IMG/VR virus record: IMGVR_UViG_3300027969_000001
Location: 1-64,000 of that record
Length of the DNA stretch: 64,000 nucleotides
Origin: a virus
Direction: 5' to 3' (one strand)
In this document: positions 42,561-64,000 of the stretch, in pieces
How the letters are laid out: each line of letters begins with the position of its first letter
How positions within the stretch are numbered: position 1 is the stretch's first letter
Translations under genes and position numbers: made by a program
The notes under the pieces: model-generated
Seen by the model: the letters and a program-made list of their open reading frames with translations, nothing else
The model's database searches: none
Told to the model about the DNA's origin: nothing

Positions 42561-42705
42561 CGATAGCGAGCGATTGACTTATCTATCACTGTACGGCTCT
42601 GTGTGAGCGTCACGGTAACGAGTTGAGTGAGAATGAGTAGTAGTGACAGAGCGAGCGTGTACGGCTCTGTGAGTAGCGCAAGAATGAATAGCAGAATCTC
42701 CATGA

Positions 42706-42909
42706 CTACTGTCTATCAGCAAGTTCAGCAAGAACGGACATAATGTTATTGCCTTCATTCCACATCAGATTATCGTAGTCCTCGTACGCTTTCTGTGGCG
42801 TGTATGTGCCTGCGATTATCTCGTCTTGTATTGCAGAGTAGTATCTAATTGCGCTCGTAAGACTCGCCTGCAAGTCTGTTAGTAATTCTGATTCAGATGG
42901 CTCGGTCAT
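42706..42909 (-). CDS. Hypothetical protein
   Basis: AAGGA RBS, 67 aa. Confidence 0.55.
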   Translation of the reverse strand: MTEPSESELLTDLQASLTSAIRYYSAIQDEIIAGTYTPQKAYEDYDNLMWNEGNNIMSVLAELADRQ

Positions 42910-43097
42910 AAAAAATCCTTTTTTTGATTAGTAATAGATAAGTGTCAGATGTGGTACATGAATAGATAAGTGAAACGCCAATGTCTCTCGGCAATGTGTA
43001 GTACCCACCAAAGGAGAAACACGATTACCGAGAGACACTAGCACCAGTGCCTCTGTTGGGAACAACCAAGAAACCAACAGAGGCAGGGACTTATCTA

Positions 43098-44645
43098 TTA
43101 CTGAATGTTCACGCCCATGTGCTGACGATAAGTGTGAACGAACATTGACGGATACACGCTCTTTGGCTTTATGCCTTTGTTCATGTTGGACAGTTGCTCA
43201 ATCGCTTCCTCAATGTGTGGCACAACAATGTAGTTGTGTTTCATTGCGTAAGTTAGGCACTGCATAGCGAGCAGGTCTGTGTAACCATCACCTTCGCCAC
43301 ACACTCCACCGTCTGTAATCCAAACGAGAGGAGTGTTGCGATACTGGCGATTCTCTACGCCCCACACGATTGCAGGATAATCAACACCGTTTCCGTGTCC
43401 GTAAGGAATGTTCTCCAATGTCTCAATCATTCGTCCCTTATCAGCGATAATCCACATGTTCGCACCGTTCTTTTTGTGACGGTCTGAATAGATTGCCACC
43501 GTTGCGCCTTTTGCCAAATCTGTAATCTGCCAAATCTGCTCTTTGGTGAATGACATAGAACCACTTGCGTCAATGATGACCATGCCACCACTGCCACGAA
43601 CGGTCTTGTCAAATACTCGCTTTGCAGGGTCAGTCATGTAACGGTGCATACGGCGTGGTCTGCGCCCCATGTTCGTAGCAACACGCTTCTTGCCGATTGT
43701 GCCAGCGTGTAAGCGTGGCATAGGAACACGCTCAATGCGTAGTTCTGCCCACTTGCCAGTGCCACTGTGTGATGTTGGGGTAATGCTCTGATGAGGAATA
43801 CCTTTCTTGTCACCTTCCTCTGAATCGCCTTCGTTGGAATGGACTGCCGTAGCAGGGTCTTTCTCGCCTTCTTCGCCTTCGCCTGACTTATCTATTCCCT
43901 TTGCACCTGCACCAGCCTTGCCTTCTTTCTCACGCTCTTTTGGTGGTGGGAATGAAGCGAGCCTGTCCACCCATTCTGCGATTCTTTCTGTGTGAACGAA
44001 TCCGTATGGCGCAATGCCGTGATGTTCTGTTGTGTTGGCGAGAGAGCGTGTCTTGTGCGCTTTCTTCATCTCACGGACTGCTCGCTTGCTGATGTCAAGC
44101 AGAGCGTCACCCCATGCACGATTGTGCCTGCGAATACCGTTCAGGAATTGCTTGTGTCCAGCAGTGCCAGCAGTTGCGATTGCACCTGTTACTGCACCAG
44201 CCCAATCTCCAGTTTTCGCTAGGCGTTCTCCGTCATTGAGTTCTCCACCGTCAGCGAGATTCTTCTTCACATCAAATCCTGCCTCTTGGCAAAGAATGTT
44301 TATGCGTAATTCCTCTACAACGGTCAGTGCAGTAGCAGAAGCCATTTCACGAGCAACCCACATCTCAAATTGTTCAGAGTTTGGTGAAACTTTTGAGTGC
44401 ATGAGTTCATGCCCACGAATACAGCGAGCGAGTTCGTCCGTCTGTGACGGTGTGAACATTGTGCGAGTATTCAGGTCAGTGCTTGGCTCGCCTCTGACTG
44501 CTTGACATTCTTCTACTGTCCATCGTCCATGCGCTAAGTCTTTGCGCCCGATGAAGTTTGGCTCGGCTTTCGCCGTTCCCCCTGACTTATCTATTGACGA
44601 GGGGAACGGCTTACCAACGCTCTTTCGTGCTGGCTTGATACTCAT
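43098..44645 (-). CDS. VWA (MIDAS) domain protein, partner of AAA+ ATPase
   Basis: IDASGSM and WITDG MIDAS motifs; HELMH motif; acidic/Gly linker. Confidence 0.8.
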   Translation of the reverse strand: MSIKPARKSVGKPFPSSIDKSGGTAKAEPNFIGRKDLAHGRWTVEECQAVRGEPSTDLNTRTMFTPSQTDELARCIRGHELMHSKVSPNSEQFEMWVAREMASATALTVVEELRINILCQEAGFDVKKNLADGGELNDGERLAKTGDWAGAVTGAIATAGTAGHKQFLNGIRRHNRAWGDALLDISKRAVREMKKAHKTRSLANTTEHHGIAPYGFVHTERIAEWVDRLASFPPPKEREKEGKAGAGAKGIDKSGEGEEGEKDPATAVHSNEGDSEEGDKKGIPHQSITPTSHSGTGKWAELRIERVPMPRLHAGTIGKKRVATNMGRRPRRMHRYMTDPAKRVFDKTVRGSGGMVIIDASGSMSFTKEQIWQITDLAKGATVAIYSDRHKKNGANMWIIADKGRMIETLENIPYGHGNGVDYPAIVWGVENRQYRNTPLVWITDGGVCGEGDGYTDLLAMQCLTYAMKHNYIVVPHIEEAIEQLSNMNKGIKPKSVYPSMFVHTYRQHMGVNIQ

Positions 44646-44647
44646 GG

Positions 44648-45373
44648 TTAGACCACCGAATCAACTGCGATAGCGTCAAGAATCTGCTTTGCTCGCTTGC
44701 CGAATGTGAGTTGGCATGCTCGTTCCATGCCTACGCTCTTACGCAACTTGTCAAGAGCCATAAATGCTCGCAACGAGATACGGTCATCGCCAGCGTCAGC
44801 CATACGGATTGCGTATCCACGCAAATCCTTTGACAATGCGAGCAGAGCGTGTGGGTGTGGTTCGTTGATACGAATACGGATTGGGAAACGGTCAGCGAGT
44901 GCTGTTGGCAATTCGCCCATGTTCTCAATGTTCGTGGTCATAATTGCAGAGAAGCCTTCTTTGGGTCGGACTACCGAGCCAGTTTCAGGATGCTCAAATG
45001 AAGCAGATTCAGGTGAATCAAGCATGGCGAGAAGTGTTGCGAACACATCGCCACCAGCCTTGTCAATTTCGTCCACGATAAGTCGTGCGCCAACTGTGCC
45101 GTTGCCGTTCCATGCTTTGAGGGCAGAACCGTCAAGCCATTGGAAGCCACCGTTATTACTTGGCATGAAGCCACCAGTTACATCCATGTTTGTCATGTCC
45201 TCTGTGCAAACAAGACGGTATGCGCCTGCTTCCACATTGCCCATTGTCATACCTGCGTAGGTCTTGCCGATTCCAGCAGGTCCAAACAGGATTACTCGGT
45301 CAATGCCTGCATTGAGAGCGTCATTGAGGTCAGTCCAGCACTGAGGCAGGCTTTCCGTTGTTGTTGATTCCAT
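44648..45373 (-). CDS. MoxR/CbbQ/CobS-like AAA+ ATPase
   Basis: GPAGIGKT Walker A, IVDEIDK Walker B, ALADRF arginine finger. Confidence 0.9.
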   Translation of the reverse strand: MESTTTESLPQCWTDLNDALNAGIDRVILFGPAGIGKTYAGMTMGNVEAGAYRLVCTEDMTNMDVTGGFMPSNNGGFQWLDGSALKAWNGNGTVGARLIVDEIDKAGGDVFATLLAMLDSPESASFEHPETGSVVRPKEGFSAIMTTNIENMGELPTALADRFPIRIRINEPHPHALLALSKDLRGYAIRMADAGDDRISLRAFMALDKLRKSVGMERACQLTFGKRAKQILDAIAVDSVV

Positions 45374-45408
45374 CTCTATTCTCCTTGTTGTTGGTGAGTG
45401 GTGAACAC

Positions 45409-45435
45409 ACCATACCAGCGTAGGTACAGACCTAC
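45409..45435 (-). promoter_or_regulatory. Motif B promoter
   Basis: GTAGGTCTGTACCT-N7-TATGGT. Confidence 0.75.
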
Positions 45436-45547
45436 AAACCTGACTTATCTATTCAGTAGAGACTTATCTATTCAGTATCAGAAGCGCACCACTTATCTAT
45501 TCACTCTCCACTTGTGGGCAAGCGAGCGAGCGAGTGCGCCAGCGCAA

Positions 45548-45628
45548 ACTTTTTTATCTCTACCCCCATGCTCGCCACACGCCCTTCTGCGTTGGAGCCC
45601 CGATGTTGCCGAGCAGTGCCGGGGCTCC
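45548..45628. repeat. Element C1 (left arm + core, 17-nt spacer)
   Basis: GGAGCCCCG 45594, CGGGGCTCC 45620. Confidence 0.85.
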
Positions 45629-45662
45629 TATGGGAAAGGGGACTTATCTATTACAGATAGTT

Positions 45663-46145
45663 TTATTTTTCTCGTTTGGGAACCATAAGAACTTCCCATA
45701 GTCCATTTTTGATTTTGCGAAATAATGGAGATTCTTTGAGGTAGGTCAAAGTTGTCTGGTAAGAGAATCCTGATTGTTCTGTGAGTTGGTCAGATGTAAA
45801 TTGCTCTGCCTGATGTTCGCTTGACCACTGCTCAAATGCTGACCACTTATCTTTGCGCTTCTCTGTGCGTTCTACTTCTACCTGTGCGTCAGATAGTCCG
45901 ATGAATGTTGATAGAAGGTACTTTGATACTTCTGCCTGCACCGAGTATGTACTTAGGTACGATTGTGGTACACGCTGTCCACCTTCTCGTTGCCAAATCT
46001 GCAATACATAAAGTCCTCTGTTTATTTCAGAAACATAAGAAACTTCCGAGAACGGAACTGCTGTTGCGTTTTTGTATTTTTTGAGAAGCACTGCCCAATG
46101 TTCTTTGTGTACTTCTTTGATTAGGTCATCTGTAATAGTTTGCAT
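45663..46145 (-). CDS. Hypothetical protein (possible C-terminal wHTH)
   Basis: 160 aa, AAGGA RBS. Confidence 0.55.
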   Translation of the reverse strand: MQTITDDLIKEVHKEHWAVLLKKYKNATAVPFSEVSYVSEINRGLYVLQIWQREGGQRVPQSYLSTYSVQAEVSKYLLSTFIGLSDAQVEVERTEKRKDKWSAFEQWSSEHQAEQFTSDQLTEQSGFSYQTTLTYLKESPLFRKIKNGLWEVLMVPKREK

Positions 46146-46225
46146 TTTTTCCTTTTTTTTGCAGTTTCTACCGTTTAGTTTTTTTCTAAAAAATCGTTTT
46201 TTTGATAGATAAGTAAGTTGGGCTG

Positions 46226-46435
46226 TTAGTCAATAACAACCCAACTGTCCTCTCCCTTGATTAGTCCGAGACTAGACCCACTATCCCACTGCACAAACAT
46301 TGTTCCTAGTGAATCAAAGTCGGTAATGACCCCTTCATCTCCTTTGGATAGTTTGGTGTGAATGTCAGATGTGTAAATCAGCCTGATTCTCCTGCCAATA
46401 AGTGCTTCTAGTCCTGCTGACAACTTATCTATCAT
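46226..46435 (-). CDS. DUF4314-like small protein
   Basis: G.RIRL..TSD.HT.L..GDEG.I...D..G...VQWDSGSSLGLI.GED. Confidence 0.65.
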   Translation of the reverse strand: MIDKLSAGLEALIGRRIRLIYTSDIHTKLSKGDEGVITDFDSLGTMFVQWDSGSSLGLIKGEDSWVVID

Positions 46436-46586
46436 GCTGGCTCTTTCTCTTGTAACGCGATGATTCGCATGTCTAATAGAAAATCTGTCATTTCTAATGA
46501 CGAAACAATGTCTCTGCCTGAACAGTGGGAGATTGCTTTGTCAATCAACAAGACGATTGGTGACTTATCTATTACAGATTCTTCAC

Positions 46587-46826
46587 TCATTCTGCGTACC
46601 CGTAAATAACCATGTCAAGTTCGTTGCCTTCTTCATCGGTGTACTTCTTCTTTCCCTCTCCTGCACAGTCGTCAAAGTATTCATCGGCTTCCAACATAAT
46701 CATTTCCATGATGTCATCAAAGTCGGGCTTCTCATCGTTGTCCTCTCTGAATCGCTTTGCCGTTTCTGCCACATCAAATGTGACAGTATTGGTGCGAGTT
46801 ACTGTGATTGTTTTTGGCTCAGACAC
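46587..46826 (-). CDS. Hypothetical acidic protein
   Basis: GTG start lies within motif A. Confidence 0.55.
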   Translation of the reverse strand: MSEPKTITVTRTNTVTFDVAETAKRFREDNDEKPDFDDIMEMIMLEADEYFDDCAGEGKKKYTDEEGNELDMVIYGYAE

Positions 46827-46830
46827 TTAT

Positions 46831-47499
46831 CTATTCCTCATCTTTCTTTTTCTTAGCGTTACCAAGTAGGTCGTGGTAACGGTGAGCAACTACGGCGAGT
46901 TTCATGTAGGCAGTGGTAGCACCCATAGCCTCAACCATGCGTCCGTACTCCTGACCTTCTTTTACTTCGCTTACATCTGCCATGTAATCTTCTTCCGAAT
47001 ACACAGGAACTCCAAAGTCATCGTAGCGATACATTTGAGTAGCACTACCAATCAACGAACCATCCCAGTCCATGCCAGTAACAACGATTGCTTCACGGAC
47101 TTCTGAAAAAGGATTCTCTGAAAAGTCTTTCTGCATTTCGCCACGCTCAAAGTCAATTTCTTCTGATGTGTCTGCACTACGGCAGAAACCCTCTACACAG
47201 AGAAAGAGGAAAGAGAACTCACGGATAGGCATAGCCTTGACTACATCTTCGTACGCCTCTAATACATCTTCACGGTGAATGAGTGGAATCATTGCAATCT
47301 TGTATGGAGAAGATAATTCGTTTTCTTCCTGATACTCAACTGCATCTTCGTCATCGCTCTTGTAAGCAACGAGCATGAGTGGGGGAGTGTCTGTCATCCC
47401 CTCGTCTTTGCACATTTGCTCTTTGGCGTACTTAGTACGGTCAAGAACATCCAGCATTATTTTTGACATTTCTTCTGAAATGGTTTCGTTGATAGCCAT
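46831..47499 (-). CDS. Hypothetical protein
   Basis: Start moved to MAINE (AAGGAG RBS), downstream of promoter B. Confidence 0.65.
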   Translation of the reverse strand: MAINETISEEMSKIMLDVLDRTKYAKEQMCKDEGMTDTPPLMLVAYKSDDEDAVEYQEENELSSPYKIAMIPLIHREDVLEAYEDVVKAMPIREFSFLFLCVEGFCRSADTSEEIDFERGEMQKDFSENPFSEVREAIVVTGMDWDGSLIGSATQMYRYDDFGVPVYSEEDYMADVSEVKEGQEYGRMVEAMGATTAYMKLAVVAHRYHDLLGNAKKKKDEE

Positions 47500-47530
47500 T
47501 GGCTTTCTCCTTGTTGGTAGGTGTGCAGTC

Positions 47531-47557
47531 ATCGTACCAGTACAGGTACAGAACTAC
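47531..47557 (-). promoter_or_regulatory. Motif B promoter
   Basis: GTAGTTCTGTACCT-N7-TACGAT. Confidence 0.75.
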
Positions 47558-47559
47558 AA

Positions 47560-47766
47560 CTATCCAAGCAACCCCTGAATGGGGAGACTTAGTGCGTCAC
47601 TTAGCGAGACAAGAGTGTCCACGCTCGGCGAATAATGTTGGTTCTCAATACGGTTCACCGTTTTTCGTTCCAGCCCTGCTCGCTTTGCTAGTTCCTCTTG
47701 TGACCAGCCTCTTTCTTTTCTTTCAGTTTTTAGCCGTGTGGCAATTACTTCTGTTGCGTTTCCCAT
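47560..47766 (-). CDS. XRE-family HTH regulator
   Basis: LKTERKERGWSQEELAKRAGLERKTVNRIEN..YSPSVDTL. Confidence 0.9.
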   Translation of the reverse strand: MGNATEVIATRLKTERKERGWSQEELAKRAGLERKTVNRIENQHYSPSVDTLVSLSDALSLPIQGLLG

Positions 47767-47800
47767 GTTGTTTCCTCTCTTGGGGACTTATCTATTTAGT

Positions 47801-48457
47801 TCAGAATGACGGAATGAAACTCTGAAACACCTTTCTCCTTTTATTTCCCCTTCTCCATGCCACATACTCCCTGATAGTGGCATCCAAATCTATGTCATGC
47901 TGGTCAGTGATGAGATTGCGCCATTCACTTTGTGCTTCGTAGAACTCGTCATACAACTCGTCAAGCCCTGATTCTGACGCTTTTTCGTACATCTGTATCA
48001 GTTCAGGTGGTTGCGTCATGTCACACATGTCCTCTGCAATCTTTTCGCCGTCACAGTAAAGTTCCCAACCAGCGTAGAAATCTGCTTCTTCTGTGCAACT
48101 GTACCCAAATACCAATTTAGGGAACTGCTTGCTGATGTTCTCAATCAACTTGTCACATGGACTCCATGCGCTCGTGTAGCGCAGATGTAGTGGGTACGAA
48201 TCTTTATCGTCAATCTCTATGTCACAAGCACCCCACTTGCTTCCCCACACGCCAAGTGCGCCACCAAAGAAAGAATCAAGTTTGTCCACCCATTCACTCT
48301 CGTCAGGGATAGGTACTAGATGGTTCATGTCATAGTGAGCGTTTATCTTGCGCCCTAGTTCATCATAATCTTCGGGCATTGAGATTGCTTTGAGAAACTT
48401 ACGAGTTTCTGTTTTGTTCCCTGCAACAACAAGGTTTGAGAAGCACCAGTTTGGCAT
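47801..48457 (-). CDS. MPNWC-type (Api92/DUF1281-like ferredoxin-fold) protein
   Basis: MPNWC start, WGSKW, YTSAWSP, QFPKL.F motifs. Confidence 0.7.
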   Translation of the reverse strand: MPNWCFSNLVVAGNKTETRKFLKAISMPEDYDELGRKINAHYDMNHLVPIPDESEWVDKLDSFFGGALGVWGSKWGACDIEIDDKDSYPLHLRYTSAWSPCDKLIENISKQFPKLVFGYSCTEEADFYAGWELYCDGEKIAEDMCDMTQPPELIQMYEKASESGLDELYDEFYEAQSEWRNLITDQHDIDLDATIREYVAWRRGNKRRKVFQSFIPSF

Positions 48458-48491
48458 GGTAGTCCTTTCGGGTTAGTGGTGGTATGCAATG

Positions 48492-48518
48492 AGCGTACCA
48501 GCACAGGTTCAGAACTAC
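48492..48518 (-). promoter_or_regulatory. Motif B promoter
   Basis: GTAGTTCTGAACCT-N7-TACGCT. Confidence 0.7.
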
Positions 48519-48601
48519 TCGGGGGGACTTATCTATTACTCATCCACCACCGTCATTGACTAACGAGCAAAAGTTTTCTATCTCATCCCCCAAGATTTTT
48601 G

Positions 48602-48693
48602 ACTTTTCTATCTCTACCCCCCATGCGCCGATTTTTTCTCTTTTTCGCCGTGTTCCGAAGGAGCCCCGACCAGTTTGGTTCGCCCCGGGGCTC
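48602..48693. repeat. Element C2 (left arm + core, 17-nt spacer)
   Basis: GAGCCCCG 48661, CGGGGCTC 48686; extra arm near 48572. Confidence 0.85.
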
Positions 48694-48715
48694 TTTTGGG
48701 AAAAGGACTTATCTA

Positions 48716-49039
48716 TTACATAGGGAGAGTTACGAGTTGTGCCGAGTGGATGTACCAGCCGTAAGCGTGACGGTGTGTCATGTAGTGCAGTAGTTCCTTG
48801 ACATCGGTAAGGTGCGTGAACACATCTTCCAACGGAACGCCGTGGCTATCAAAGAATCCACGCTCGGGCTTGGGTGAGAACGAGATGTACATGTTCTCGT
48901 ATCCCTCATAAGAGCCATAAGACCTCTGTGGCTTTATCTGGCACTGCGCTCCAATAAACTTTTTTTTTGTCATCATCAGAAAGAGAGTCTTTATCAAAGA
49001 CCAAATGTGGGCGAATGACTTATCTATTACCATTCTCAT
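48716..49039 (-). CDS. Hypothetical protein
   Basis: Start moved to MRMVIDKS (ATGA overlap). Confidence 0.5.
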   Translation of the reverse strand: MRMVIDKSFAHIWSLIKTLFLMMTKKKFIGAQCQIKPQRSYGSYEGYENMYISFSPKPERGFFDSHGVPLEDVFTHLTDVKELLHYMTHRHAYGWYIHSAQLVTLPM

Positions 49040-49281
49040 GCCCTTCGCCAAACGCTGAACTGTTCGGTCAGGTCGGTACCAATCAGGGCAATAGTCAATC
49101 GTGCAATGGATTCCAGCAGTTCTTTTTCGGTAATGCCCCATTCCTCGTTAGCCCACGGGAACATCATTCCGTTCTCGTAGTCACACCAAATGTTCGCCAT
49201 TGCGCCAGCACGACTAACGCCAATGCTGTAATAGTTTTCCCATAGGATTTCATCAACTGCGTATTTGCTAGTTTTCGTCAT
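49036..49281 (-). CDS. Hypothetical protein
   Basis: Coupled ORF. Confidence 0.55.
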   Translation of the reverse strand: MTKTSKYAVDEILWENYYSIGVSRAGAMANIWCDYENGMMFPWANEEWGITEKELLESIARLTIALIGTDLTEQFSVWRRA

Positions 49282-49483
49282 TTTGTACTTCCTCTGCTAC
49301 GTGCGATGAAATCGTGTCTGCAATTTTTGAGAAATCTACACCAAACGATGCTTTCCATCTGTCCAGTACAACTTCCATCGCAAGGTTCGCAACTTCTTCC
49401 GTAGAAAGATTTGCCGAGTCAATGCTCAGCACTTCCCTTACTGTTGCTGGTCCAACTATTGCTGTTACTTCGTAAAGAGCCAC
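49268..49483 (-). CDS. Hypothetical protein
   Basis: GTG start lies within motif A. Confidence 0.55.
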   Translation of the reverse strand: MALYEVTAIVGPATVREVLSIDSANLSTEEVANLAMEVVLDRWKASFGVDFSKIADTISSHVAEEVQNDEN

Positions 49484-49487
49484 TTAT

Positions 49488-49927: not shown

Positions 49928-49958
49928 TACTTTCCCCTTTGTGGTTGGCTTCGCCTTC

Positions 49959-56528: not shown

Positions 56529-56612
56529 TCTTTTTTATCTCTACCCCCGTTGCGCCCCCACCCGTCACTTCTCGGTGGGGGCCCCGTTCGCGCTGAGTCA
56601 TGCCGGGGCTCC
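56529..56612. repeat. Element C8 (left arm + core, 17-nt spacer)
   Basis: Core 56578-56612. Confidence 0.8.
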
Positions 56613-56681
56613 CATCGGGCGCAAGGTCAAGCCTTGACCTACCCGTGAGAGTAAGTCAAGGCGAGACTATCTAGCACTTAT

Positions 56682-57116: not shown

Positions 57117-57148
57117 GGTTACCCCTTCATGGTTGTTTGACTACTCGC

Positions 57149-57175
57149 ATAGTACCATCGTAGGTACGGAACTAC
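57149..57175 (-). promoter_or_regulatory. Motif B promoter (leftward at divergence point)
   Basis: GTAGTTCCGTACCT-N7-TACTAT. Confidence 0.75.
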
Positions 57176-57237
57176 TGTGGGACTTATCTATTACCGATAC
57201 GCTCACGCCTCGCCACTCGGCAACCCCCGATAGTTGG

Positions 57238-57374
57238 GCTTATCTATCTCAACCCCCGTCACAGCCTCGGAGTCTCTCGGACTCTTACGGTTGGAGCCCC
57301 GTTCGCGCTCGGTTCCCTCGGGGCTCCCATCGGGAAGGGCGCTTCCCTACTCTTGGGGGTCGTGATAAAAAAGT
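57238..57374. repeat. Element C9 (both arms, 17-nt spacer)
   Basis: Core 57293-57327. Confidence 0.85.
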
Positions 57375-57419
57375 TTCATCTAATCGGTCAGGGTCTTTCT
57401 TTCATAGATAAGTCTCGGT

Positions 57420-57446
57420 GGAGGTTTGTACCTCACCATGTACTCT
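57420..57446 (+). promoter_or_regulatory. Motif B promoter (rightward at divergence point)
   Basis: GGAGGTTTGTACCT-N7-TACTCT. Confidence 0.7.
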
Positions 57447-57487
57447 GTGTCCAGTTGGGGGATGGTCTCCCAGCAGGAAGGGATGCC

Positions 57488-58009
57488 ATGTTCGGTGTTG
57501 TTCAGCAGTTGGAGGACGAAGAGGTGCAGGCTCGCACTGTGCTTTTCGTTTACGAAGTCAAAGAGGAAGGCGATGCACTCGCTGTGGTTGGAACATTCCA
57601 CCCCAACTTCTTTGACCAAGACATTGTCAATCTCATCAAGGAAGAGCGCCAGTGCTCTTACAACCAAGCAGAGGACGACGAGCAGGGTTCAGCGATGGAA
57701 GCCTGTGGTTGCATTTGGTGCCTCACCGAAGGCACGGGCTATCTCAATTGGGGAAGCAACGGATGGGATGACATTCCGAGAGGGTTCGCATTTGTGCAGT
57801 TTCCAAAAAGCGCTGCAATCGCCGAAGGCTCGCTCATTCTTGTTGAAGGCAAGTGGCTCTCCGAGGACATCCACGGCGTTTCGGAAACCAAGTCCGTTAT
57901 CAACTACGAGACCACAATGGTGGAGACCTCGCATGGCACCTACCCCGAAGCCGAGTGCCTTGCAGTTGAGCATTGGGAGTTGCTACCAGCACTCCCAGCC
58001 AATCGGTAA
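57488..58009 (+). CDS. Hypothetical protein
   Basis: Start moved to MFGVV (GAAGGGA RBS); stop overlaps motif A. Confidence 0.6.
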   Translation: MFGVVQQLEDEEVQARTVLFVYEVKEEGDALAVVGTFHPNFFDQDIVNLIKEERQCSYNQAEDDEQGSAMEACGCIWCLTEGTGYLNWGSNGWDDIPRGFAFVQFPKSAAIAEGSLILVEGKWLSEDIHGVSETKSVINYETTMVETSHGTYPEAECLAVEHWELLPALPANR

Positions 58010-58069
58010 TAGATAAGTCATCAACCACTCTGAGTGAAAGAAGAACTCGCTCAGAGTGATGACCAAGGA

Positions 58070-58146
58070 AGCCCCGGCTCGCTCGTTCCCAACGGGGCTC
58101 CCTTGCGCTTCGCTTGCTTCGGTGGTGGGGGTCGTGATAAAAAAGT
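58070..58146. repeat. Element C10 (core + right arm, 16-nt spacer)
   Basis: Core 58070-58100. Confidence 0.85.
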
Positions 58147-58202
58147 CTGCTCCTCGTTGCGAGGGAGAAGCTCGGGTTATCTGTAATAGATAAGTACCCC
58201 TA

Positions 58203-58229
58203 GCAGTTCTGTACCTATTGGGTTACTAT
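58203..58229 (+). promoter_or_regulatory. Motif B promoter
   Basis: GCAGTTCTGTACCT-N7-TACTAT. Confidence 0.7.
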
Positions 58230-58267
58230 TGAGTGACCACATAACACTTTCCTGAAGGGGGAACTAA

Positions 58268-58681
58268 ATGTCAAAAATAGATTATGACGGAATACAACTT
58301 TCGTACGAGGCTCAAGTTATTGAGTCAGATAAAAAGTTGCTTGATGCTTTACTTGATGCCGTGAAAGATGAAGAACTTGCACCTTTCACATTCCACATGG
58401 AGTGGGTCATCTGTGATTACTGCCGTGGCAACGGTGGACACTCTCGCCGTTTCGGTGCAATGAGTTCAGAAGAGTTTGCAGAGTGGAGCGATGAGTCTCG
58501 TGAAGCGTACTTGCGTGGTGCTTACGATGACCGTTGTGAAGCGTGTGATGGAAGTGGAAAGGTCTATGAGATGAACGAAGGCGCATTGCCTGAAGAAGTT
58601 ATTGAGTTCATTGACAACTACCGTCAGTACGCATTTGATAGCGCATCTGAAAGTCGTGCTGAACGAATGGCAGGTTGCTGA
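58268..58681 (+). CDS. Protein with DnaJ-type CxxCxGxG Zn finger
   Basis: CDYCRGNG and CEACDGSG. Confidence 0.7.
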   Translation: MSKIDYDGIQLSYEAQVIESDKKLLDALLDAVKDEELAPFTFHMEWVICDYCRGNGGHSRRFGAMSSEEFAEWSDESREAYLRGAYDDRCEACDGSGKVYEMNEGALPEEVIEFIDNYRQYAFDSASESRAERMAGC

Positions 58682-58920
58682 TGTTTACTTACCGTGTAAC
58701 TGTTCAGGTCACGCTTGATGTTGAGGCAGAAGATGACGATGGAGCAATGGCAGTAGCAATGCAGAATGTCAGTGCTCGCATAGGCGATGACCGTACAACA
58801 CCTCTCCACGAAAGAACTGATGCAATGTGGGTGACAGGCATTGCTGAAAGAGATTACGAATACTTTTGTTACAAGCAACCATTCCCACTATGGGTAATAG
58901 ATAAGTCAGAGGACTACTAA
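58681..58920 (+). CDS. Hypothetical protein
   Basis: Coupled ORF; ends VIDKSEDY (motif A in frame). Confidence 0.55.
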   Translation: MFTYRVTVQVTLDVEAEDDDGAMAVAMQNVSARIGDDRTTPLHERTDAMWVTGIAERDYEYFCYKQPFPLWVIDKSEDY

Positions 58921-58922
58921 TC

Positions 58923-59213
58923 ATGAATAACAAAAGCGATAGTTATTACACACTTAGGTCTGTCATTCGTTTTATCTTTTGGGGAACGATACTCGCAGTA
59001 ATCATGTGGATTGTTACAACATCTATTGCAGTTTTTGCATCTGATGAAACACCCGATTGTGATGTGACATTAGAGCGTGACTTCACATGGAACGCTCGTG
59101 AGTTCGCAGTGCTCAATCCAACCAAGACGCTTGCAGATTGCCGTCATTACCAAAGCGTTGTTCTCAATGAGAACGGCACATGGGAATGGTACGACCCATA
59201 CATGGACTCATAG
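58923..59213 (+). CDS. Membrane-anchored hypothetical protein
   Basis: N-terminal TM; GAGGA RBS. Confidence 0.55.
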   Translation: MNNKSDSYYTLRSVIRFIFWGTILAVIMWIVTTSIAVFASDETPDCDVTLERDFTWNAREFAVLNPTKTLADCRHYQSVVLNENGTWEWYDPYMDS

Positions 59214-59314
59214 AAAGGATTGATTATGGTTTTTTTATTTGTTATTGCAGTAACGCTTGCAGTTCTAATAGCAATAGTTCGTGACGATAGATGGTGGTGA
59301 ACACTTATCTATTA

Positions 59315-59626
59315 CTAATCAAACGAACGAGACACTGGTAAGTCGCATTGCAAACAATCGTAATGTGCAAGTGTCTTTTTTGTTTTTCTCTTGACGATGT
59401 ACGCAGATGAAAGATGACCACCACCTTCGTACTCACTCAACAATGCTTGATGCGTTTTTATCTCTTCGCTGTTGAGACCTAAGTCCTCGGCGCAGTACGC
59501 ACAGATGTAGCCATCGGCAATCTCGTCATAGATGACAGATGTAGTCATGTCATCTTGCTCGTACTCATCAGAGAACTGGTTGGTGCTAGTTGCAAAGTAC
59601 GGTTGGAGTGCTTTTGTTTTTTTCAT
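59315..59626 (-). CDS. Zn-binding hypothetical protein, inverted relative to neighbours
   Basis: CAYC and CLQC; GAGGA RBS; flanking motif A copies also inverted. Confidence 0.6.
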   Translation of the reverse strand: MKKTKALQPYFATSTNQFSDEYEQDDMTTSVIYDEIADGYICAYCAEDLGLNSEEIKTHQALLSEYEGGGHLSSAYIVKRKTKKTLAHYDCLQCDLPVSRSFD

Positions 59627-59878
59627 TTTTTCCTCTCACCTCTTATGAGGTTGCTTGTGTTTTACAATCGGACATTTTTTCTTACATCTTTTACAAGAGT
59701 CCTTGCATCTCTTTATGTCAAAAGTTTTTGTCCGTTACCTATTAGACGTGTCATCGTCTCCGTTTCTGAAAACGATGCTCGCAGTTGATAGAAGCGTCAT
59801 CTTGATACGAAAACGAAACGACTTATCTATTCAGTAATAGAAAGCAGGCTTCGCTCGGAGAAAGTAAGCGAGTCAGCA

Positions 59879-60015
59879 ACTTTTCTATCTCTACCCCCGT
59901 TGCAAGGCAGTTATGCCAGCGCATGGGAGCCCCGATGCTGTTCGCTCCTAACGGGGCTTCTACCTCGCGCGCGTGACGCCGAGAGCAGCAAGCTTGGGGG
60001 GTCGCGATAAATAAG
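59879..60015. repeat. Element C11 (both arms, 17-nt spacer)
   Basis: Core 59926-59958. Confidence 0.85.
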
Positions 60016-60148
60016 CAAGATTTCAGCTGGGAGCTGGGAGCTGGGAGCTGGCGAAATAAGGGATAGATAAGTGGTTTAAATCTTTTACAAAACTGACCGA
60101 TTGCAAAACGCAACTCCTTGCAAATAAAGGGTTTGCGGTCGTAAAAAT

Positions 60149-60175
60149 GTAGGTTTGTACCTACTTTTGTATAAT
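60149..60175 (+). promoter_or_regulatory. Motif B promoter with consensus -10
   Basis: GTAGGTTTGTACCT-N7-TATAAT. Confidence 0.8.
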
Positions 60176-60219
60176 CCGCGCACGCCCACAACCACCACAA
60201 CAACCCACAAGGAGCCCAC

Positions 60220-60321
60220 ATGAAGCCACACGATAAGAACAGCCGCCCACCTACCTCATTCGTAGGCGGCGCAGGTCATTGGAATAAGCGCGGCAAATCA
60301 AAGCCAAAAGATAAAAAGTAA
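60220..60321 (+). CDS. Basic 33-aa peptide (not in ORF track)
   Basis: AAGGAG RBS; MKPHDKNSRPPTSFVGGAGHWNKRGKSKPKDKK. Confidence 0.5.
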   Translation: MKPHDKNSRPPTSFVGGAGHWNKRGKSKPKDKK

Positions 60322-60348
60322 TTCGGACAAAGGAAGGAACCACACCCG

Positions 60349-60957
60349 ATGAACACACACCCACACCACGCAGCAGTAGTAGACGCAATCAAGGCGCTAC
60401 CTGCTTACACAGACCCGCAGACATTCTTTGAGTCAGAACTAGCCGAGTGCTACTCAGACGAGGAGCTTGTAGAAACATTCGGCTGGGACGGAGACAAGGC
60501 GCTCACAATCAAGCAGGCGCTCAAAGCAGTCAAGGAGCTTTGCGAGCTTCGTCAAGATGTTTACGGCTGGATTATTGAGGAAGGCGACCGAGAGCGCGAA
60601 GCAGAGCAAGAGGCGTACAAGCGCTGGCGCGAAGAACAAGAGGCAGCTAGCCGTTGTGGTTGGCTCGTAGAGCGCTCATGGGAAGCAGCTTTCCCATTCG
60701 TGCCGAACCCCGAATACACAGATGAGGAGAACGCCGAACACAGGCAGTGGCACGGTGAAAGCCTCGGTGAACGAGCAGCAGAGTCAGGCAACCGCTACGC
60801 AATCGTTGATTGTGGTGCGAAGCTCGCAGATGTCATTCGCAACGGCGTGCGAGTTGGTTGGGAGTGCGAAGCAGGTCACCGTTCCATCAGCATGGAACAC
60901 ATGACGCAAGAGGAGCAGGACGAGCAATACCGCTTGGATTACGAGGACAGCTACTAG
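60349..60957 (+). CDS. Hypothetical acidic protein
   Basis: 202 aa ORF. Confidence 0.65.
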   Translation: MNTHPHHAAVVDAIKALPAYTDPQTFFESELAECYSDEELVETFGWDGDKALTIKQALKAVKELCELRQDVYGWIIEEGDREREAEQEAYKRWREEQEAASRCGWLVERSWEAAFPFVPNPEYTDEENAEHRQWHGESLGERAAESGNRYAIVDCGAKLADVIRNGVRVGWECEAGHRSISMEHMTQEEQDEQYRLDYEDSY

Positions 60958-61036
60958 CCACCTCTTGGAATAGATAAGTTCTCCCCACGCCCCCACCCCC
61001 CCTTCCATCAGGGGCGTGGGGTTTATCGCAGGGACA

Positions 61037-61068
61037 AGCCCCGTTCGGGTTCGTTTCCGTCGGGGCTC
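61037..61068. repeat. Element C12 (core only, 17-nt spacer)
   Basis: AGCCCCG 61037, CGGGGCTC 61061. Confidence 0.8.
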
Positions 61069-61090
61069 TCATCGTTAGCGCGAAATGTCC

Positions 61091-61117
61091 GTAGGTCTGT
61101 ACCTCCCCGGGTACTCT
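61091..61117 (+). promoter_or_regulatory. Motif B promoter
   Basis: GTAGGTCTGTACCT-N7-TACTCT. Confidence 0.75.
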
Positions 61118-61123
61118 GTGGCC

Positions 61124-61453
61124 ATGACAAAAAAACACTTCACCGATTACACCAAAGCCGAAGCATGGGCCGAGAAAAACAACCTCGCCCTAGAACCCAT
61201 CGGAACCTGCTGGGAGGAGCACACAGTGGCCTCATGGAAGAGCGATACCACCCGTATCGAAATATGGATTCAGGAGATGGAATACGCAGCAGAGCACGAG
61301 CGTGGCGGATACATCCCTTGCCTTGTGGATTGCCCTGTAGTCCTCGTGTGGGACGGCCTAGAGGCCAATGCGCCCTACACGCTCCACCCTGACTTCTGCA
61401 CGCTCACAGAGGCTCGCAAGGGCTTCGATGAGTTGGTCAGGCAAGCGAGTTAG
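61124..61453 (+). CDS. Hypothetical protein, probably leaderless
   Basis: ATG follows the -10 hexamer after 6 nt; no RBS. Confidence 0.6.
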   Translation: MTKKHFTDYTKAEAWAEKNNLALEPIGTCWEEHTVASWKSDTTRIEIWIQEMEYAAEHERGGYIPCLVDCPVVLVWDGLEANAPYTLHPDFCTLTEARKGFDELVRQAS

Positions 61454-61571
61454 ACACCCGGTGAACTTTTTCTCCCCGGCACGAAATTCCCTGCCGGGGA
61501 GAAATTCCGGCGGGTTTTTTCTTCACCGGAATTTCTTGCCGGAATCGGAAAGATTTTGCGCTAATGGTAGA

Positions 61572-61670
61572 AGCCCCGTTCTCGTTCGTTCTCTATTGTT
61601 TCGAACGGGGCTCTCATCGGCTCGGGTGTTCGGCGCGAACAACACGCGATGGGGGTTGTGATAGATAAGT
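61572..61670. repeat. Element C13 (core + right arm, 27-nt spacer)
   Basis: Core 61572-61613. Confidence 0.85.
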
Positions 61671-61697
61671 GTAGGTCTGTACCTGACCAGGTACGAT
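61671..61697 (+). promoter_or_regulatory. Motif B promoter
   Basis: GTAGGTCTGTACCT-N7-TACGAT. Confidence 0.75.
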
Positions 61698-61737
61698 GCT
61701 TGTACGGCGGGAAGTACCCGCCCATGAAGGGAAAGTC

Positions 61738-62019
61738 ATGAAGCAAGTAACAATCACATGGAAAGCGTTCGGCGAACCAACATCGGCTGCACTCGCGCTT
61801 GACACGAGCGCAAGCGCGTTGGAGATATGCGATGCAATATTCCACCAAACGAATGTTTACGCTGGTCCGATATGGGACGAACTGGAACCGCTCCTGCCAG
61901 CCACACGCACACACACTGCGCTTTCAGTTGGAGACGAAGTCACAGTTGATGGCGAAGTGATTCGGTGCGAGCCAATGGGTTGGGCTACCAGGTTCATCGC
62001 TGACGCTCTTACTGAATAG
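61738..62019 (+). CDS. Hypothetical protein
   Basis: Start moved to MKQVT; ALSVGDEVTVDG..CEPMGW motif. Confidence 0.6.
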   Translation: MKQVTITWKAFGEPTSAALALDTSASALEICDAIFHQTNVYAGPIWDELEPLLPATRTHTALSVGDEVTVDGEVIRCEPMGWATRFIADALTE

Positions 62020-62040
62020 ATAAGTCCCCCCAGCGGAGAA

Positions 62041-62067
62041 CCCCACCTCACTCGGGTGGGGTTCTTC
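62041..62067 (+). terminator. Possible intrinsic terminator
   Basis: CCCCACC-TCACTCG-GGTGGGG then TTCTT. Confidence 0.45.
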
Positions 62068-62080
62068 CCGTTCTCAAGAC

Positions 62081-62158
62081 AGCCCCGTGGCTGTTCGGCA
62101 CGAACGGGGCTCTCATCGGCGAGCGAGCGAGAATGATTGGGGGTCGCGATAGAAAAGT
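62081..62158. repeat. Element C14 (core + right arm, 17-nt spacer)
   Basis: Core 62081-62112. Confidence 0.85.
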
Positions 62159-62175
62159 TTCCAAAAGAAAAGGTT

Positions 62176-62202
62176 GCAATCCTGTACCTGCTGTGGTACG
62201 AT
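62176..62202 (+). promoter_or_regulatory. Motif B promoter (degenerate)
   Basis: GCAATCCTGTACCT-N7-TACGAT. Confidence 0.6.
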
Positions 62203-62231
62203 TTCATCAGACCAGTAGAAGGGGTTGACCA

Positions 62232-62531
62232 ATGAGGAAAGAGACACGCTCTCTCAAAAAGAAAGCCGAAGGCCTAGGCATTTCGGTAGATGAATTAGTT
62301 GAGGAAATGGAAGTCGGGAATCCCGACAAATCGTTCGTCATAACTGTGGCCTTTGACCGATACAAAGATTTGCGTTCGTTCGCAGACGAAATCGCTCAGA
62401 GAATGGGTCTCGCAATTTATCAGGCCGATTCACTTGACCACGAATACAACGGCAGTGTGCGAGACGGAATGTTCGTCCTGCGAGACCCGAACGGTTTCCA
62501 CGGCAAACCAGACCATTGGAGGGTTGACTAG
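62232..62531 (+). CDS. Hypothetical protein
   Basis: GAAGGGG RBS. Confidence 0.6.
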   Translation: MRKETRSLKKKAEGLGISVDELVEEMEVGNPDKSFVITVAFDRYKDLRSFADEIAQRMGLAIYQADSLDHEYNGSVRDGMFVLRDPNGFHGKPDHWRVD

Positions 62532-62552
62532 TGGTGATAGATAAGTCCCCTT

Positions 62553-62579
62553 GTAGTTCTGTACCTTATGTAGTACGCT
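62553..62579 (+). promoter_or_regulatory. Motif B promoter
   Basis: GTAGTTCTGTACCT-N7-TACGCT. Confidence 0.75.
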
Positions 62580-62605
62580 CTGTTCAGACCACGGAAGGGG
62601 TTTCC

Positions 62606-62908
62606 ATGATAACAACGGAAAAATTCGAGATGCTCAAAGAGCAACTGGAAGCATCAACAGACCAGATGAAGAAAATGGTAGAGGCGCTAAGAACGCCAAC
62701 ACCATGCGATTGCTGCTTCTCAGACGAGGAGAACGCTGAGAATTATCGCGATTTTGAGAACGCAGTTCGCGACCTCTCTAACGAATGTCAAGAGATTGCG
62801 ATGAAGGCCTACGATTGCTACATGGCCATCACCCGCGCTCCACTGGAAATTGCGCTCGCACAACTGGATGCGATGCAAGAGGGCTACCGCCTCCTCGCCG
62901 AACAATAG
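62606..62908 (+). CDS. Hypothetical helical protein
   Basis: Start moved to MITTE (GAAGGGG RBS). Confidence 0.6.
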   Translation: MITTEKFEMLKEQLEASTDQMKKMVEALRTPTPCDCCFSDEENAENYRDFENAVRDLSNECQEIAMKAYDCYMAITRAPLEIALAQLDAMQEGYRLLAEQ

Positions 62909-63005
62909 GTAATAGATAAGTCCCCCGAGCACCCCCCGCTCGGGGGATTTTCTTTGCCCGTGACCCAGCCCGTACTTGTAATAGATAAGTCCCCTGTTGT
63001 GATGA

Positions 63006-63094
63006 AGCCCCGTCTTCGGCGGAGTCCGTTCGTCTCCGACGGGGCTCTCATCGGCGAGCGAGCGAGAGTGCATTGGGGGTCGTGATAAAAAAGT
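63006..63094. repeat. Element C15 (core + right arm, 27-nt spacer)
   Basis: Core 63006-63047. Confidence 0.85.
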
Positions 63095-63121
63095 GTAGGT
63101 CTGTACCTAGTGCAGTACAGT
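63095..63121 (+). promoter_or_regulatory. Motif B promoter
   Basis: GTAGGTCTGTACCT-N7-TACAGT. Confidence 0.75.
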
Positions 63122-63149
63122 GTGGTCATACCAACGGAAGGGGTACGAG

Positions 63150-63656
63150 ATGCCAAAGACGGCTCTACAAGTAAAGACCACAGGTGAAGTAGTAATGCTT
63201 GACCTAGAGGGTGACGAACTAGCAACACTGCAGAGTGCAGTGGGCGGATACATTGAAGCAATAAACTTCACCAACTCGCTGACTATGTGGTGCAACGAAG
63301 AAGGCAAACTAGACGGTCTCTCGCAGAACATCATTGCTCAACACTTCTATGACAATGCATACGGTGCAGGGCGTGACATTATCGTGGGTGATGTTGTATT
63401 CACTGGCGGTGCTGATGATGAAGGTGACACAATGGGTCTCCGTGAAGAATTGGTCAAAGACATTCACGAAGTAGCCGAGCGTCTTGCTCGCTCCGCAGTG
63501 TTCATCACCAAGGCAGAGACGAAGAAGGTCATGAGCTGGCAAGACCATCTCGGTGACGCTCCTATGACAGAGGAGAATGTGTGGCAGGCAATTGCTGATG
63601 CGAATGACCTTGACTACGACGAAATTGCTGACGGCGATTTATTTGAGTGGCTCTAG
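63150..63656 (+). CDS. DUF3846-like protein
   Basis: LQSAVGGYIEAI, WCNEEGKLDGL..N..A, IVGDVVFTG. Confidence 0.75.
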   Translation: MPKTALQVKTTGEVVMLDLEGDELATLQSAVGGYIEAINFTNSLTMWCNEEGKLDGLSQNIIAQHFYDNAYGAGRDIIVGDVVFTGGADDEGDTMGLREELVKDIHEVAERLARSAVFITKAETKKVMSWQDHLGDAPMTEENVWQAIADANDLDYDEIADGDLFEWL

Positions 63657-63689
63657 CGCTCAATTATTGGTAATAGATAAGTGCCAATT

Positions 63690-63716
63690 GTAGGTCTGAA
63701 CCTACGGTGGTACTGT
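63690..63716 (+). promoter_or_regulatory. Motif B promoter
   Basis: GTAGGTCTGAACCT-N7-TACTGT. Confidence 0.7.
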
Positions 63717-63743
63717 GTGGTCACCTAAGGAAAGGGGTACGCA

Positions 63744-64000
63744 ATGTCATCAGACATTACATTCATCAACAGAGTGCAGGAAGCACTCACGGCAGGCAAG
63801 GTTATCGGGGACGGGCACACTCTGTTCGCTCCCGAGTTCTACGAGCCGTACTTCACGGCAGAGGAACTCTCTAGCCTTATTCGTAAGCACGAATCTCACG
63901 GCTCGTGGAAATCCACCATCTTTGACGAGGACGGCAATGTCATTCCTGAATTAGAGGCTATCTACAATCTAGATTTTCTCTACTGGCTCGCAGGGCAACT
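63744..64000 (+). CDS. Hypothetical protein (3' truncated by window)
   Basis: AAAGGGG RBS; MSSDITFINRVQEAL... open to window end. Confidence 0.6.
   Translation, partial: MSSDITFINRVQEALTAGKVIGDGHTLFAPEFYEPYFTAEELSSLIRKHESHGSWKSTIFDEDGNVIPELEAIYNLDFLYWLAGQ

Follow-up and report, generated by a model that had tools for sequence, protein, structure and literature searches.

Why should a phage genome repeat the same few short DNA words throughout one long run of small genes? The question is raised by the virus contig IMGVR_UViG_3300027969_000001 (158,714 bp; rated complete, 100%, in IMG/VR), of which positions 1-64000, hereafter termed the window, were analyzed. The most abundant of these words, M1 (ATAGATAAGT), forms a dense, putatively early/accessory region that begins at 42577, reaches the end of the window, and continues to about 72.3 kb of the genome; it is accompanied by a promoter motif (M2), a hairpin (C), and arms that flank the hairpins. 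An earlier note on this DNA had described the four motifs as the grammar of an array of gene cassettes that both expresses and shuffles its cargo. Our analysis of the window, the complete genome, and its relatives leads to a different emphasis. M1 keeps its positions in related phages while its spelling changes from lineage to lineage, and the interpretation that we favor, giving it about an even chance of being correct, is that M1 sites are stoperator-like operators within a regulatory grammar, recognized by a co-evolving factor.

Distribution and orientation of M1

Gene positions given below come from a crude open reading frame (ORF) picker and were checked by conservation. The window contains 59 exact copies of M1, against 0.16 expected by chance, and no shuffled sequence reached that number. 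Fifty-six of the 59 lie in the region that starts at 42577; genome-wide, 63 of the 66 exact 10-mer copies fall within 42.5-72.3 kb, and the first 35 kb, where the earlier note had seen essentially none of the motifs, hold a single copy, at 7600. The density is about two per kb (median gap 406 bp), and sites are present even inside long genes. The word is asymmetric and about 11-15 bp long (here AATAGATAAGTC; extended consensus (g.)AATAGATAAGTc), and it does not contain the AGGAG core of a Shine-Dalgarno sequence.

M1 sites are also directional. To the left of 57.3 kb, 33 copies are on the minus strand and 9 on the plus strand; from 57.3 to 65 kb, 15 are on the plus strand and 2 on the minus strand. 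In total, 48 of these 59 copies (42-65 kb) are therefore co-oriented with local transcription (33/42 to the left of 57.3 kb, 15/17 to the right).

With respect to genes, M1 ends an ORF of at least 45 codons in 31 of the 66 copies, and 29 of the 66 are found close to where such an ORF starts, at distances from -25 to +37 nt; for many copies there is no start codon in the vicinity. Between 14 and 20 copies (14 strictly) adjoin a promoter, 6-10 nt upstream of the promoter box, and the remainder lie at gene junctions, operon ends, or in gene interiors. If the three nucleotides upstream are included, 48 copies have stop codons in two frames and 18 have them in all three. Several copies are translated in the sole open frame as I-D-K-(S), and in several cases M1 occupies the stretch that separates a GAGGA ribosome-binding site from a GTG start codon. 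About 70% have no -10-like element at the right distance. Three tandem copies (45443-45500, minus strand) stand just upstream of the promoter of an operon that encodes a MoxR-type ATPase and a vWA-type protein.

Promoters, hairpins, and arms

The M2 motif (GTAGKTYYGWACC-N7-K-TAYNNT) has the form of an extended -10 promoter with a 13-bp box and is present in 19 copies in the window, against 0.01 expected. All lie between 45409 and 63716, with starts at 45409, 47531, 48492, 49959, 51386, 51919, 52872, 53697, 55161, 56374, and 57149 on the minus strand and at 57420, 58203, 60149, 61091, 61671, 62553, 63095, and 63690 on the plus strand. The box ends exactly 8 nt before TAYNNT, and these 8 nt usually end in TGG or GTG, giving the extended -10 form TGnTAYnnT; together, the box and the -10 region make up the dyad GTACC-N7-GGTAC. 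A scan for the sigma-70 consensus did not detect the M2 promoters, whose -35 element is atypical. Because no ORF contains a phage RNA-polymerase catalytic motif (nor did the large ORFs give a Pfam RNA-polymerase match), we read M2 as probable host-polymerase promoters of the sigma-A extended -10 type.

The C hairpin (GCCCCG-N16-17-CGGGGC; also (G)GAGCCCCG-N16-17-CGGGGCTC(C)) occurs 14 times in the genome. Thirteen copies are in the window (45597-62110), starting at 45597, 48663, 50483, 52055, 52963, 53869, 55298, 56581, 57296, 58071, 59929, 61038, and 62082; the fourteenth is at 64214, outside it. The central loop is at least 16 nt long (16-25 nt) and variable in sequence in all genomes. The arm (GGGGGTNGNGATARAWAAG), a G-run joined to an M1-like half, has 19 copies in the window (45549-63093), against 0 expected. 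Each arm points away from its hairpin, and that of the sense strand comes after the hairpin and ahead of the promoter that follows. The antisense copies of M1 behave similarly, most of them lying on the far flank of a hairpin and directed away from it. In two perfect hairpins, 52306-52346 and 55493-55525, both at 3′ ends of leftward units, an antisense M1 forms one arm and a near-complement forms the other. Rfam families gave no match within 36-64 kb.

On the sense strand, most units have the same order: M1, a gap of 6-10 nt, the promoter box, a ribosome-binding site and the gene or genes with M1 at their junctions, and then M1, hairpin, arm, M1, and the next promoter. The layout is mirrored at 57.3 kb, where a complete palindromic C element (arm′, hairpin, arm; 57239-57373) marks the divergence point, flanked on each side by M1 and an outward promoter (57149-57191 on the minus strand, 57404-57446 on the plus strand); as RNA, this element folds at -59 kcal/mol (z = -2.8). 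A full boundary module is exemplified by 55161-55525 (minus strand), which contains, in sense order, two antisense M1 copies (one inside the hairpin at 55493-55525), an anti-arm (55359-55377), a hairpin (55298-55326), an arm (55239-55257), M1 (55198-55207), and the promoter (55161-55187); the composite stem-loop of hairpin and both arms has an RNA fold of -63.1 kcal/mol (z = -5.1). The description in the earlier note is in these respects borne out: all four motifs are where it placed them, far above chance; the layout, the mirror, and the continuation past the window, to about 72 kb, are real; and the grammar organizes expression, dividing the region into about 20 promoter-driven units.

Conservation of positions and change of the word in relatives

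The gene of the MoxR-type ATPase (AAA_5; 44648-45373, minus strand), the best-conserved gene of the array, served as an anchor for fetching 80 related loci. The exact word ATAGATAAGT is nearly absent from five complete relatives. Instead, the relatives of the M1 clade whose full sequence was retrieved match this density, each with a different word; five complete relatives have 63-97 copies, the words being, among others, GGTAGATAAGTC in G001 (67 copies), GAGTAGATAAGTC in G003 (63-97 copies, depending on the core used), GGTGTAGGTAAGTC in G004 (76 copies), and CTAATAGATAACT in G008 (63 copies). Further words among the 80 loci are ACTAGATAAGT, GAGTAGATAAcT, AAGGATAATGTAA, GGGGATAAGTC, AGGATAGTGCA, GTGGGATAAct, and AAAGATAGCG, and at least 12 distinct spellings were seen. 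An exact-word scan of IMG/VR for GTAATAGATAAGTC returned, among the matches listed, single chance matches only. No high-copy word was found in loci with an ATPase less than about 78% identical, in the complete genomes G006 and G007, or in the cultured phage Cantare, which have a promoter-type repeat or nothing; G006 contains about 30 copies of the promoter-type motif TTTGGAAATTTGGTAT. The M1 layer may have been added to, or have replaced part of, an older scheme of one promoter per gene.

The positions of the sites change far less than their spelling. The clearest case is the 515-aa gene that follows the ATPase gene (43098-44645, minus strand), which contains two in-frame copies of M1 (43886-43895 and 44585-44594, read as I-D-K-S) and a third at its stop (43089-43098). 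In nearly all lineages, the two internal sites coincide in the alignment or are immediate neighbors, with the peptide of the orthologs re-coded to the local word as IDKS, VDKS, GVGKS, RVDNS, IDNS, or LDKS. Conservation of position is thus strong enough to rewrite a protein sequence. At orthologous gene 3′ ends, M1 is present in both genomes in 26 cases, in one only in 15 + 9, and in neither in 46, an odds ratio of about 9, these counts being phylogenetically non-independent. The change of word is concerted: in relatives, the 3′ M1-like half of the arm changes together with the local word.

Other elements stay constant across the family. The promoter box AGTCTGWACC and the TGGTAY element recur in relatives irrespective of the M1 word; in G001, that word runs straight into the box without a gap. 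Likewise invariant is the hairpin core GAGCCCCG...CGGGGCTC, and GAGCCCCG is among the commonest 8-mers even in distant M1-free relatives. A further constant element, M5 (TTAG-N4-WTGACGGTGGTGGATGA), has seven co-oriented copies on the minus strand between 38640 and 53766 (38640, 39962, 40655, 42237, 48540, 50360, and 53751); its core GACGGTGGTGGA is unchanged in five further relatives, two of them M1-free, with 5-9 co-oriented copies each. Translated, M5 gives M-(L)-T-V-V-D-E/D; one copy encodes the first residues of a 225-aa protein (40674), and another makes up a six-codon mini-ORF closed by an M1 copy (48540-48560). GGTGGTGG is one base off the E. coli Chi site. The result is a clean separation of two layers, in which the promoter box, the hairpin core, and three DNA-binding proteins considered below are constant and the M1 word and the arms vary.

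The combination of kept positions and a changing word is, as judged from these alignments, the signature of a selected nucleic-acid site whose reader has repeatedly shifted in specificity. Three other ideas about the repeat leave the lineage-specific spelling unexplained and were set aside: a resemblance of the M1 reverse complement to the DnaA box (TTATCTAYN vs TTATCCACA), T5-type nick sites, and a role of the A-tract/U-tract in bidirectional terminators.

Genome and probable host

The genome encodes an HK97-type capsid protein, a portal, a large terminase, collagen-like fibers, and giant polyvalent virion proteins, these cargo proteins carrying ArdC-like and helicase modules, as well as an SNF2 helicase, a primase-helicase, and a ribonucleotide reductase. 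The phage collection searched holds no near-identical record. The nearest cultured relatives by capsid protein are actinophages (Brevibacterium phage Cantare and several Gordonia phages, at 45-48% identity), and IMG/VR holds at least 434 contigs of uncultured relatives at 70-83% capsid identity, many of them 145-170 kb long. We take the virus to be an uncultured freshwater phage whose host is probably an actinobacterium, because of this kinship, an Rpf-like transglycosylase domain encoded in the genome, and a LexA-type box (CGAACATATGTTCG, 41824-41837), a perfect CGAAC-N4-GTTCG. The box is located just upstream of the gene of a helix-turn-helix (HTH) protein at the left edge of the array (41847-42227, plus strand), which combines an HA domain with an HTH resembling sigma-70 region 4, and it suggests that this regulator gene may be under DNA-damage control, in a phage without an integrase. 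Pfam models of phage integrase and resolvase found no tyrosine or serine recombinase in the complete genome, extending to its full length the statement of the earlier note that none is visible in the window. We did not find a sigma gene; the HA-domain protein is the only sigma-region-4-like protein.

M1 as a possible operator

The reading of M1 sites as stoperator-like operators rests on several observations taken together: their enrichment and confinement, their orientation, the lineage-specific words, the conserved positions, the fixed geometry with promoters, the apparent dependence on host polymerase, the match to published stoperators, and the hints about the host. According to this interpretation, the region would be an early/accessory transcription region of about 20 short units governed by two layers of DNA signals. 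The first, family-wide layer would consist of host sigma-A-type promoters (TGnTAYnnT with the box AGTCTGWACC) and of hairpins (GGAGCCCCG-N16-18-CGGGGCTCC) that separate the units as terminators, insulators, or protein-binding dyads. The second, lineage-specific layer would be M1 itself, found ahead of promoter boxes, at gene junctions (its bases often serving as the stop codon or as the first codons of a gene), and in long genes, together with the degenerate M1 of the arms that flank each hairpin. The phage would encode a sequence-specific factor for which M1 is the operator; acting on host polymerase at initiation and elongation, this factor would switch the whole block off, or on, as one unit, as is the case with stoperators in Cluster A mycobacteriophages. 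Such a switch would more likely serve temporal control in the lytic cycle than lysogenic immunity, because the phage has no integrase. The phage is thus probably lytic, although extrachromosomal lysogeny may occur.

Several results weigh against this interpretation, among them that the search for the factor yielded no clear candidate. Three clear DNA-binding proteins are encoded near the array. One is a 68-aa Cro/CI-type HTH protein (47560-47766, minus strand), whose recognition helix, (L/I)(D/E)RKT(V/I)NR(I/V)E(N/K), is near-identical across all M1 variants and M1-free relatives. The second is the HA-domain protein, the HTH segment of which, SL(R/S)(E/Q)IAD.(F/Y)(D/E)LSRQR(V/I)HQI, is near-identical across all M1 variants. 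The third is a 160-aa protein (45663-46145, minus strand), conserved across all M1 variants, whose C-terminus appears winged-helix-like by sequence pattern (GFSYQTTLTYLKES...KNGLWEV). Because the recognition helices of these proteins remain unchanged while the M1 word varies and are constant in M1-free genomes as well, the three cannot set M1 specificity, and we discard them as its readers. They are instead candidates for binding the invariant dyads, the 68-aa protein in particular for GTACC-N7-GGTAC.

A contrast of genomes with and without M1 pointed to a fast-evolving 171-aa protein (32242-32757, minus strand; 26-34% identity between genomes), predicted to have a winged helix and long helices. 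Its structural model has a mean predicted local distance difference test (pLDDT) score of 61, the best fold matches are regulators of the PadR/MarR type (E about 0.02), and no sequence relative was found in the PDB. It is a weak candidate for the M1-binding factor: the family reaches beyond the M1 clade, genomes with the same word differ in the putative recognition helix, and covariation with the word is not clean. The remaining output of the presence/absence contrast (four further M1 genomes vs two M1-free) comprised mostly acidic, membrane, or small proteins of unknown function, none convincing, and an outlier scan of G003 against G004 returned mainly spurious ORFs. No homolog of the L5 repressor gp71 was detected in a six-frame search of the complete genome (E <= 10), and profile comparison found the 171-aa protein unrelated to gp71. 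With neither a gp71 homolog nor an integrase, the lysogenic-immunity logic of stoperators does not carry over. It should also be noted that a terminator scan did not call the C hairpins and that their loops of 16-25 nt are long for terminators; these hairpins may be tail-less terminators or insulators, or half-site pairs for a dimeric protein.

A last point against a role on DNA is that most variants of the word keep TAG and TAA in two frames and that so many copies end or begin a gene, which makes a role in mRNA also plausible. Under this alternative, which we consider unlikely but the most probable of the rivals, M1 would act at gene junctions, either as a translational operator or as a signal for processing; its reader would be an RNA-binding protein or endoribonuclease of the phage that drifts in specificity from lineage to lineage. 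T4 RegA, which acts on early-gene initiation regions, and the RNase III sites between T7 early genes would be its models. M1 is mostly confined to the sense strand, 29 of the 66 copies lie no more than about 40 nt from a start codon, 31 of the 66 overlap a stop, several stand between GAGGA and GTG, and so AU-rich a word would be unstructured as RNA; moreover, the nearest positional analog, the start-associated sequences (SAS) of Cluster K phages, has been proposed to act in translation (PMC3203893). However, the copies that precede a promoter box by 6-10 nt, like the word joined to the box in G001, fall outside the transcript of that promoter, the M1-like halves in the arms are symmetric on both strands around the hairpins, and the antisense copies are directed outward from them. 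We prefer a role on DNA because the geometry of M1 and promoter is fixed, because in G001 the two are fused, and because the arms near promoters change with M1.

More doubtful is the proposal that M1 is a positive promoter element, that is, a -35-like or activator box for a phage activator or sigma-appropriation factor, comparable with the MotA box in T4, the copies without a -10 element being weak internal promoters, landing sites, or decoys. In its favor, M1 and the box are separated by a fixed distance, and in several genomes the -35-proximal part of the box agrees with the 3′ half of M1, TAAGTC (TTGTAAGTCTGAACC in G001, GGAAGTCTGAACC in G004); in G001, the M1 word takes the place of that part altogether. 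This proposal nevertheless has difficulty with the roughly 70% of copies that have no -10-like element at the right distance and with those inside coding sequence; no sigma or RNA-polymerase gene was found in the genome, and the sole sigma-region-4-like protein does not vary with the word.

Gene order and the question of shuffling

The earlier note had proposed that the grammar shuffles its cargo, the ORFs being mostly unrelated, and gene order in relatives bears directly on this claim. From 42.5 to 56.3 kb, most genes are conserved: in G001 and G004, whose proteins here are 35-86% identical, 17-20 of them are arranged as in this genome. The genes here are thus not mostly unrelated, and constant order in relatives is what the note itself had named as evidence against shuffling. 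The most conserved operon of the array (43098-45373, minus strand) belongs to this part; in it, the ATPase is paired with the 515-aa protein, which has a vWA-type DASGS (MIDAS-like) motif.

What survives of the claim concerns the center of the array. From about 56.5 to 65 kb, the region is hypervariable; it is made up of units of one to three genes, set off by hairpins and promoters, and few of these genes have orthologs in relatives. Two single genes are inverted with respect to their orthologs in G001, G003, and G004: 59315-59626 (minus strand), with an M1 at its stop (59303-59312) on the gene's strand, and 61696-62019 (plus strand), which in those genomes has a hairpin 100-540 nt off each side. 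Hairpins adjoin the inverted genes, and nearby M1 copies are mostly on the strand of the gene. Three genes are at other places in one or another relative (39492, 65557, and 71186). In close pairs of genomes (83-95% DNA identity), replaced segments start at an arm or promoter and end at a gene start; there are only about four events, motifs and gene boundaries coincide in any case, and the pattern fits homologous exchange rather than a dedicated system.

We therefore regard dedicated cassette shuffling, in which M1 and C elements would be integron-like recombination sites that mobilize cassettes of one to a few genes, as improbable. The variable center, the two inversions beside hairpins, the few relocated genes, and the breakpoints speak in its favor, and the stop codons of M1 in two or three frames would end any incoming gene. 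Yet gene order at 42.5-56.3 kb is constant across deep divergence; M1 positions are conserved even inside a gene that recombination would destroy; the complete genome has no tyrosine or serine recombinase; by a rough estimate, some 40% of the array is no more than 60 nt from a motif, so that coincidence in about four events is not significant; and homologous recombination of the kind described for promoter-early/stem-loop (PeSL) cassettes suffices (PMC4122927). The simplest reading of the variable center, from the comparison of these genomes, is occasional homologous recombination of this PeSL-like kind between the repeated palindromic regulatory modules. Because they are repeated and palindromic, these modules would permit occasional exchange and inversion of single genes in the central zone; shuffling would then be, at most, a by-product of recombination.

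It is hardly probable that M1 marks or nucleates a protective coat, whereby a phage protein, possibly injected, would cover the stretch or label it as "self" against host or own nucleases: the high and fairly regular density (median gap 406 bp), the sites kept inside long genes, the giant virion cargo proteins with ArdC-like and helicase modules, and a very basic protein of 237 aa in the M1 clade that is undetected in two M1-free genomes agree with it, but coating needs neither strict co-orientation nor fixed promoter spacing, and the distance from the array to the contig ends differs among complete relatives, so that "first injected" cannot be inferred.

Other features of the genome

The 237-aa protein (genome positions 143471-144184) is of low complexity, is present in four further genomes of the M1 clade, and is possibly a DNA-associated virion protein. 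Array proteins match DUF3846 (two members), DUF4314, DUF6011, DUF1281_C, DUF1599, and DUF932 in a set-wise scan whose hits are unmapped to genes; these families are typical of the leading regions of conjugative elements and of polyvalent proteins. From similar N-terminal sequences, ORFs 50912-51355 and 63150-63656 are our guess for the two DUF3846 members. The left part of the window (1-25000) contains many genes of collagen-like Gly-X-Y repeats with a 9-bp periodicity among fiber genes, and a tryptophan-halogenase-like gene (11647-13191, minus strand; PHROG 2928, E = 1e-102) lies among fiber genes as well. The contig starts inside a collagen-like gene, and the "direct terminal repeat" call of the record may stem from tandem repeats.

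Implications

To our knowledge, no system comparable with stoperator-type silencing is known outside the Cluster A mycobacteriophages, and what is described here suggests that something comparable, or parallel, operates in uncultured freshwater phages that form a large and abundant clade. The 12 or more spellings constitute a natural series of specificities, a data set in which the reader protein may be sought by covariation and the evolution of DNA recognition studied. Should the reader be a new protein, it would offer a compact, orthogonal set of operator/regulator pairs. A caution also follows: synteny should be checked before repeated regulatory modules are read as mobile cassettes.

A bolder possibility, which we rate as unlikely, is that M1 serves as an "address code" peculiar to each lineage, its reader being a co-evolving factor of a new kind, protein or RNA, that gives each lineage private control over an invariant chassis of promoters and terminators. 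Immunity-like exclusivity groups would then form among large phages that have no integrase and are thus probably lytic, and the M1-armed boundaries would double as recombination joints that renew anti-host cargo in the center. If so, a co-infecting relative would be unable to read, or would be silenced on, the early region of another lineage.

Comparison with known systems

The closest match is with the stoperators of Cluster A mycobacteriophages, through which a type of silencing has been described (PMC9283540). These are asymmetric 13-mers whose orientation is tied to transcription; more than 20 of them are placed in promoters and in the short spaces between genes (PMC9283540), and they are known from L5, with its repressor gp71, and from the TipsytheTRex repressor (PMC9283540, PMC6550527). 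Once bound, the repressor stops transcription both at initiation and during elongation, with an effect that depends on the orientation of the site. M1 shares with them a short asymmetric site in many copies, its placement at promoters and in short intergenic spaces, its transcription-tied orientation, a sequence that differs between related phages, a dependence on host RNA polymerase, and, probably, an actinobacterial host. It differs in number and concentration (63-97 copies in about 30 kb of a 150-170-kb genome vs more than 20 over the whole L5 genome), in that its sites are re-coded into proteins at conserved positions and built into palindromic boundary elements, and in the absence of both a gp71-type repressor (HTH and Stoperator domain) and an integrase, so that lysogenic immunity is probably not its purpose.

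The SAS/ESAS elements of Cluster K combine a 13-bp repeat that contains a ribosome-binding sequence, with a consensus common to subclusters, and spaced inverted repeats paired with it (PMC3203893); their function is still unknown (PMC12699233). Like M1, SAS is an asymmetric repeat confined to the non-structural part of the genome, in a single orientation, at gene starts, at positions conserved between genomes, and paired with spaced inverted repeats. In contrast to SAS, M1 contains no ribosome-binding site, varies between lineages, lies also upstream of promoters and within genes, and is several times more numerous; SAS is found 3-7 bp upstream of starts, whereas M1 ranges from -25 to +37 nt.

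The PeSL cassettes of T4-type phages are modules at the breakpoints of indels and replacements in hyperplastic regions (PMC2839356, PMC4122927). Both systems repeat composite terminator/promoter modules (here hairpin, arm, M1, and promoter) between early genes that are small and variable, but PeSLs have no additional high-copy, lineage-specific word, and the present array is mostly syntenic, with a signal of exchange only in the central 8 kb. In integrons, small genes lie between imperfect palindromes as attC cassettes that depend on the tyrosine recombinase IntI, an attI site, and a single common promoter. The array resembles them in having small genes separated by imperfect palindromes and departs from them in having no site-specific recombinase, a promoter for each unit, and a gene order conserved across the clade. 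As the earlier note had surmised, each known analog covers only part of the grammar and none the whole. We therefore file the M1 system with the operator/stoperator kind, yet as a member of neither the stoperator nor the SAS family.

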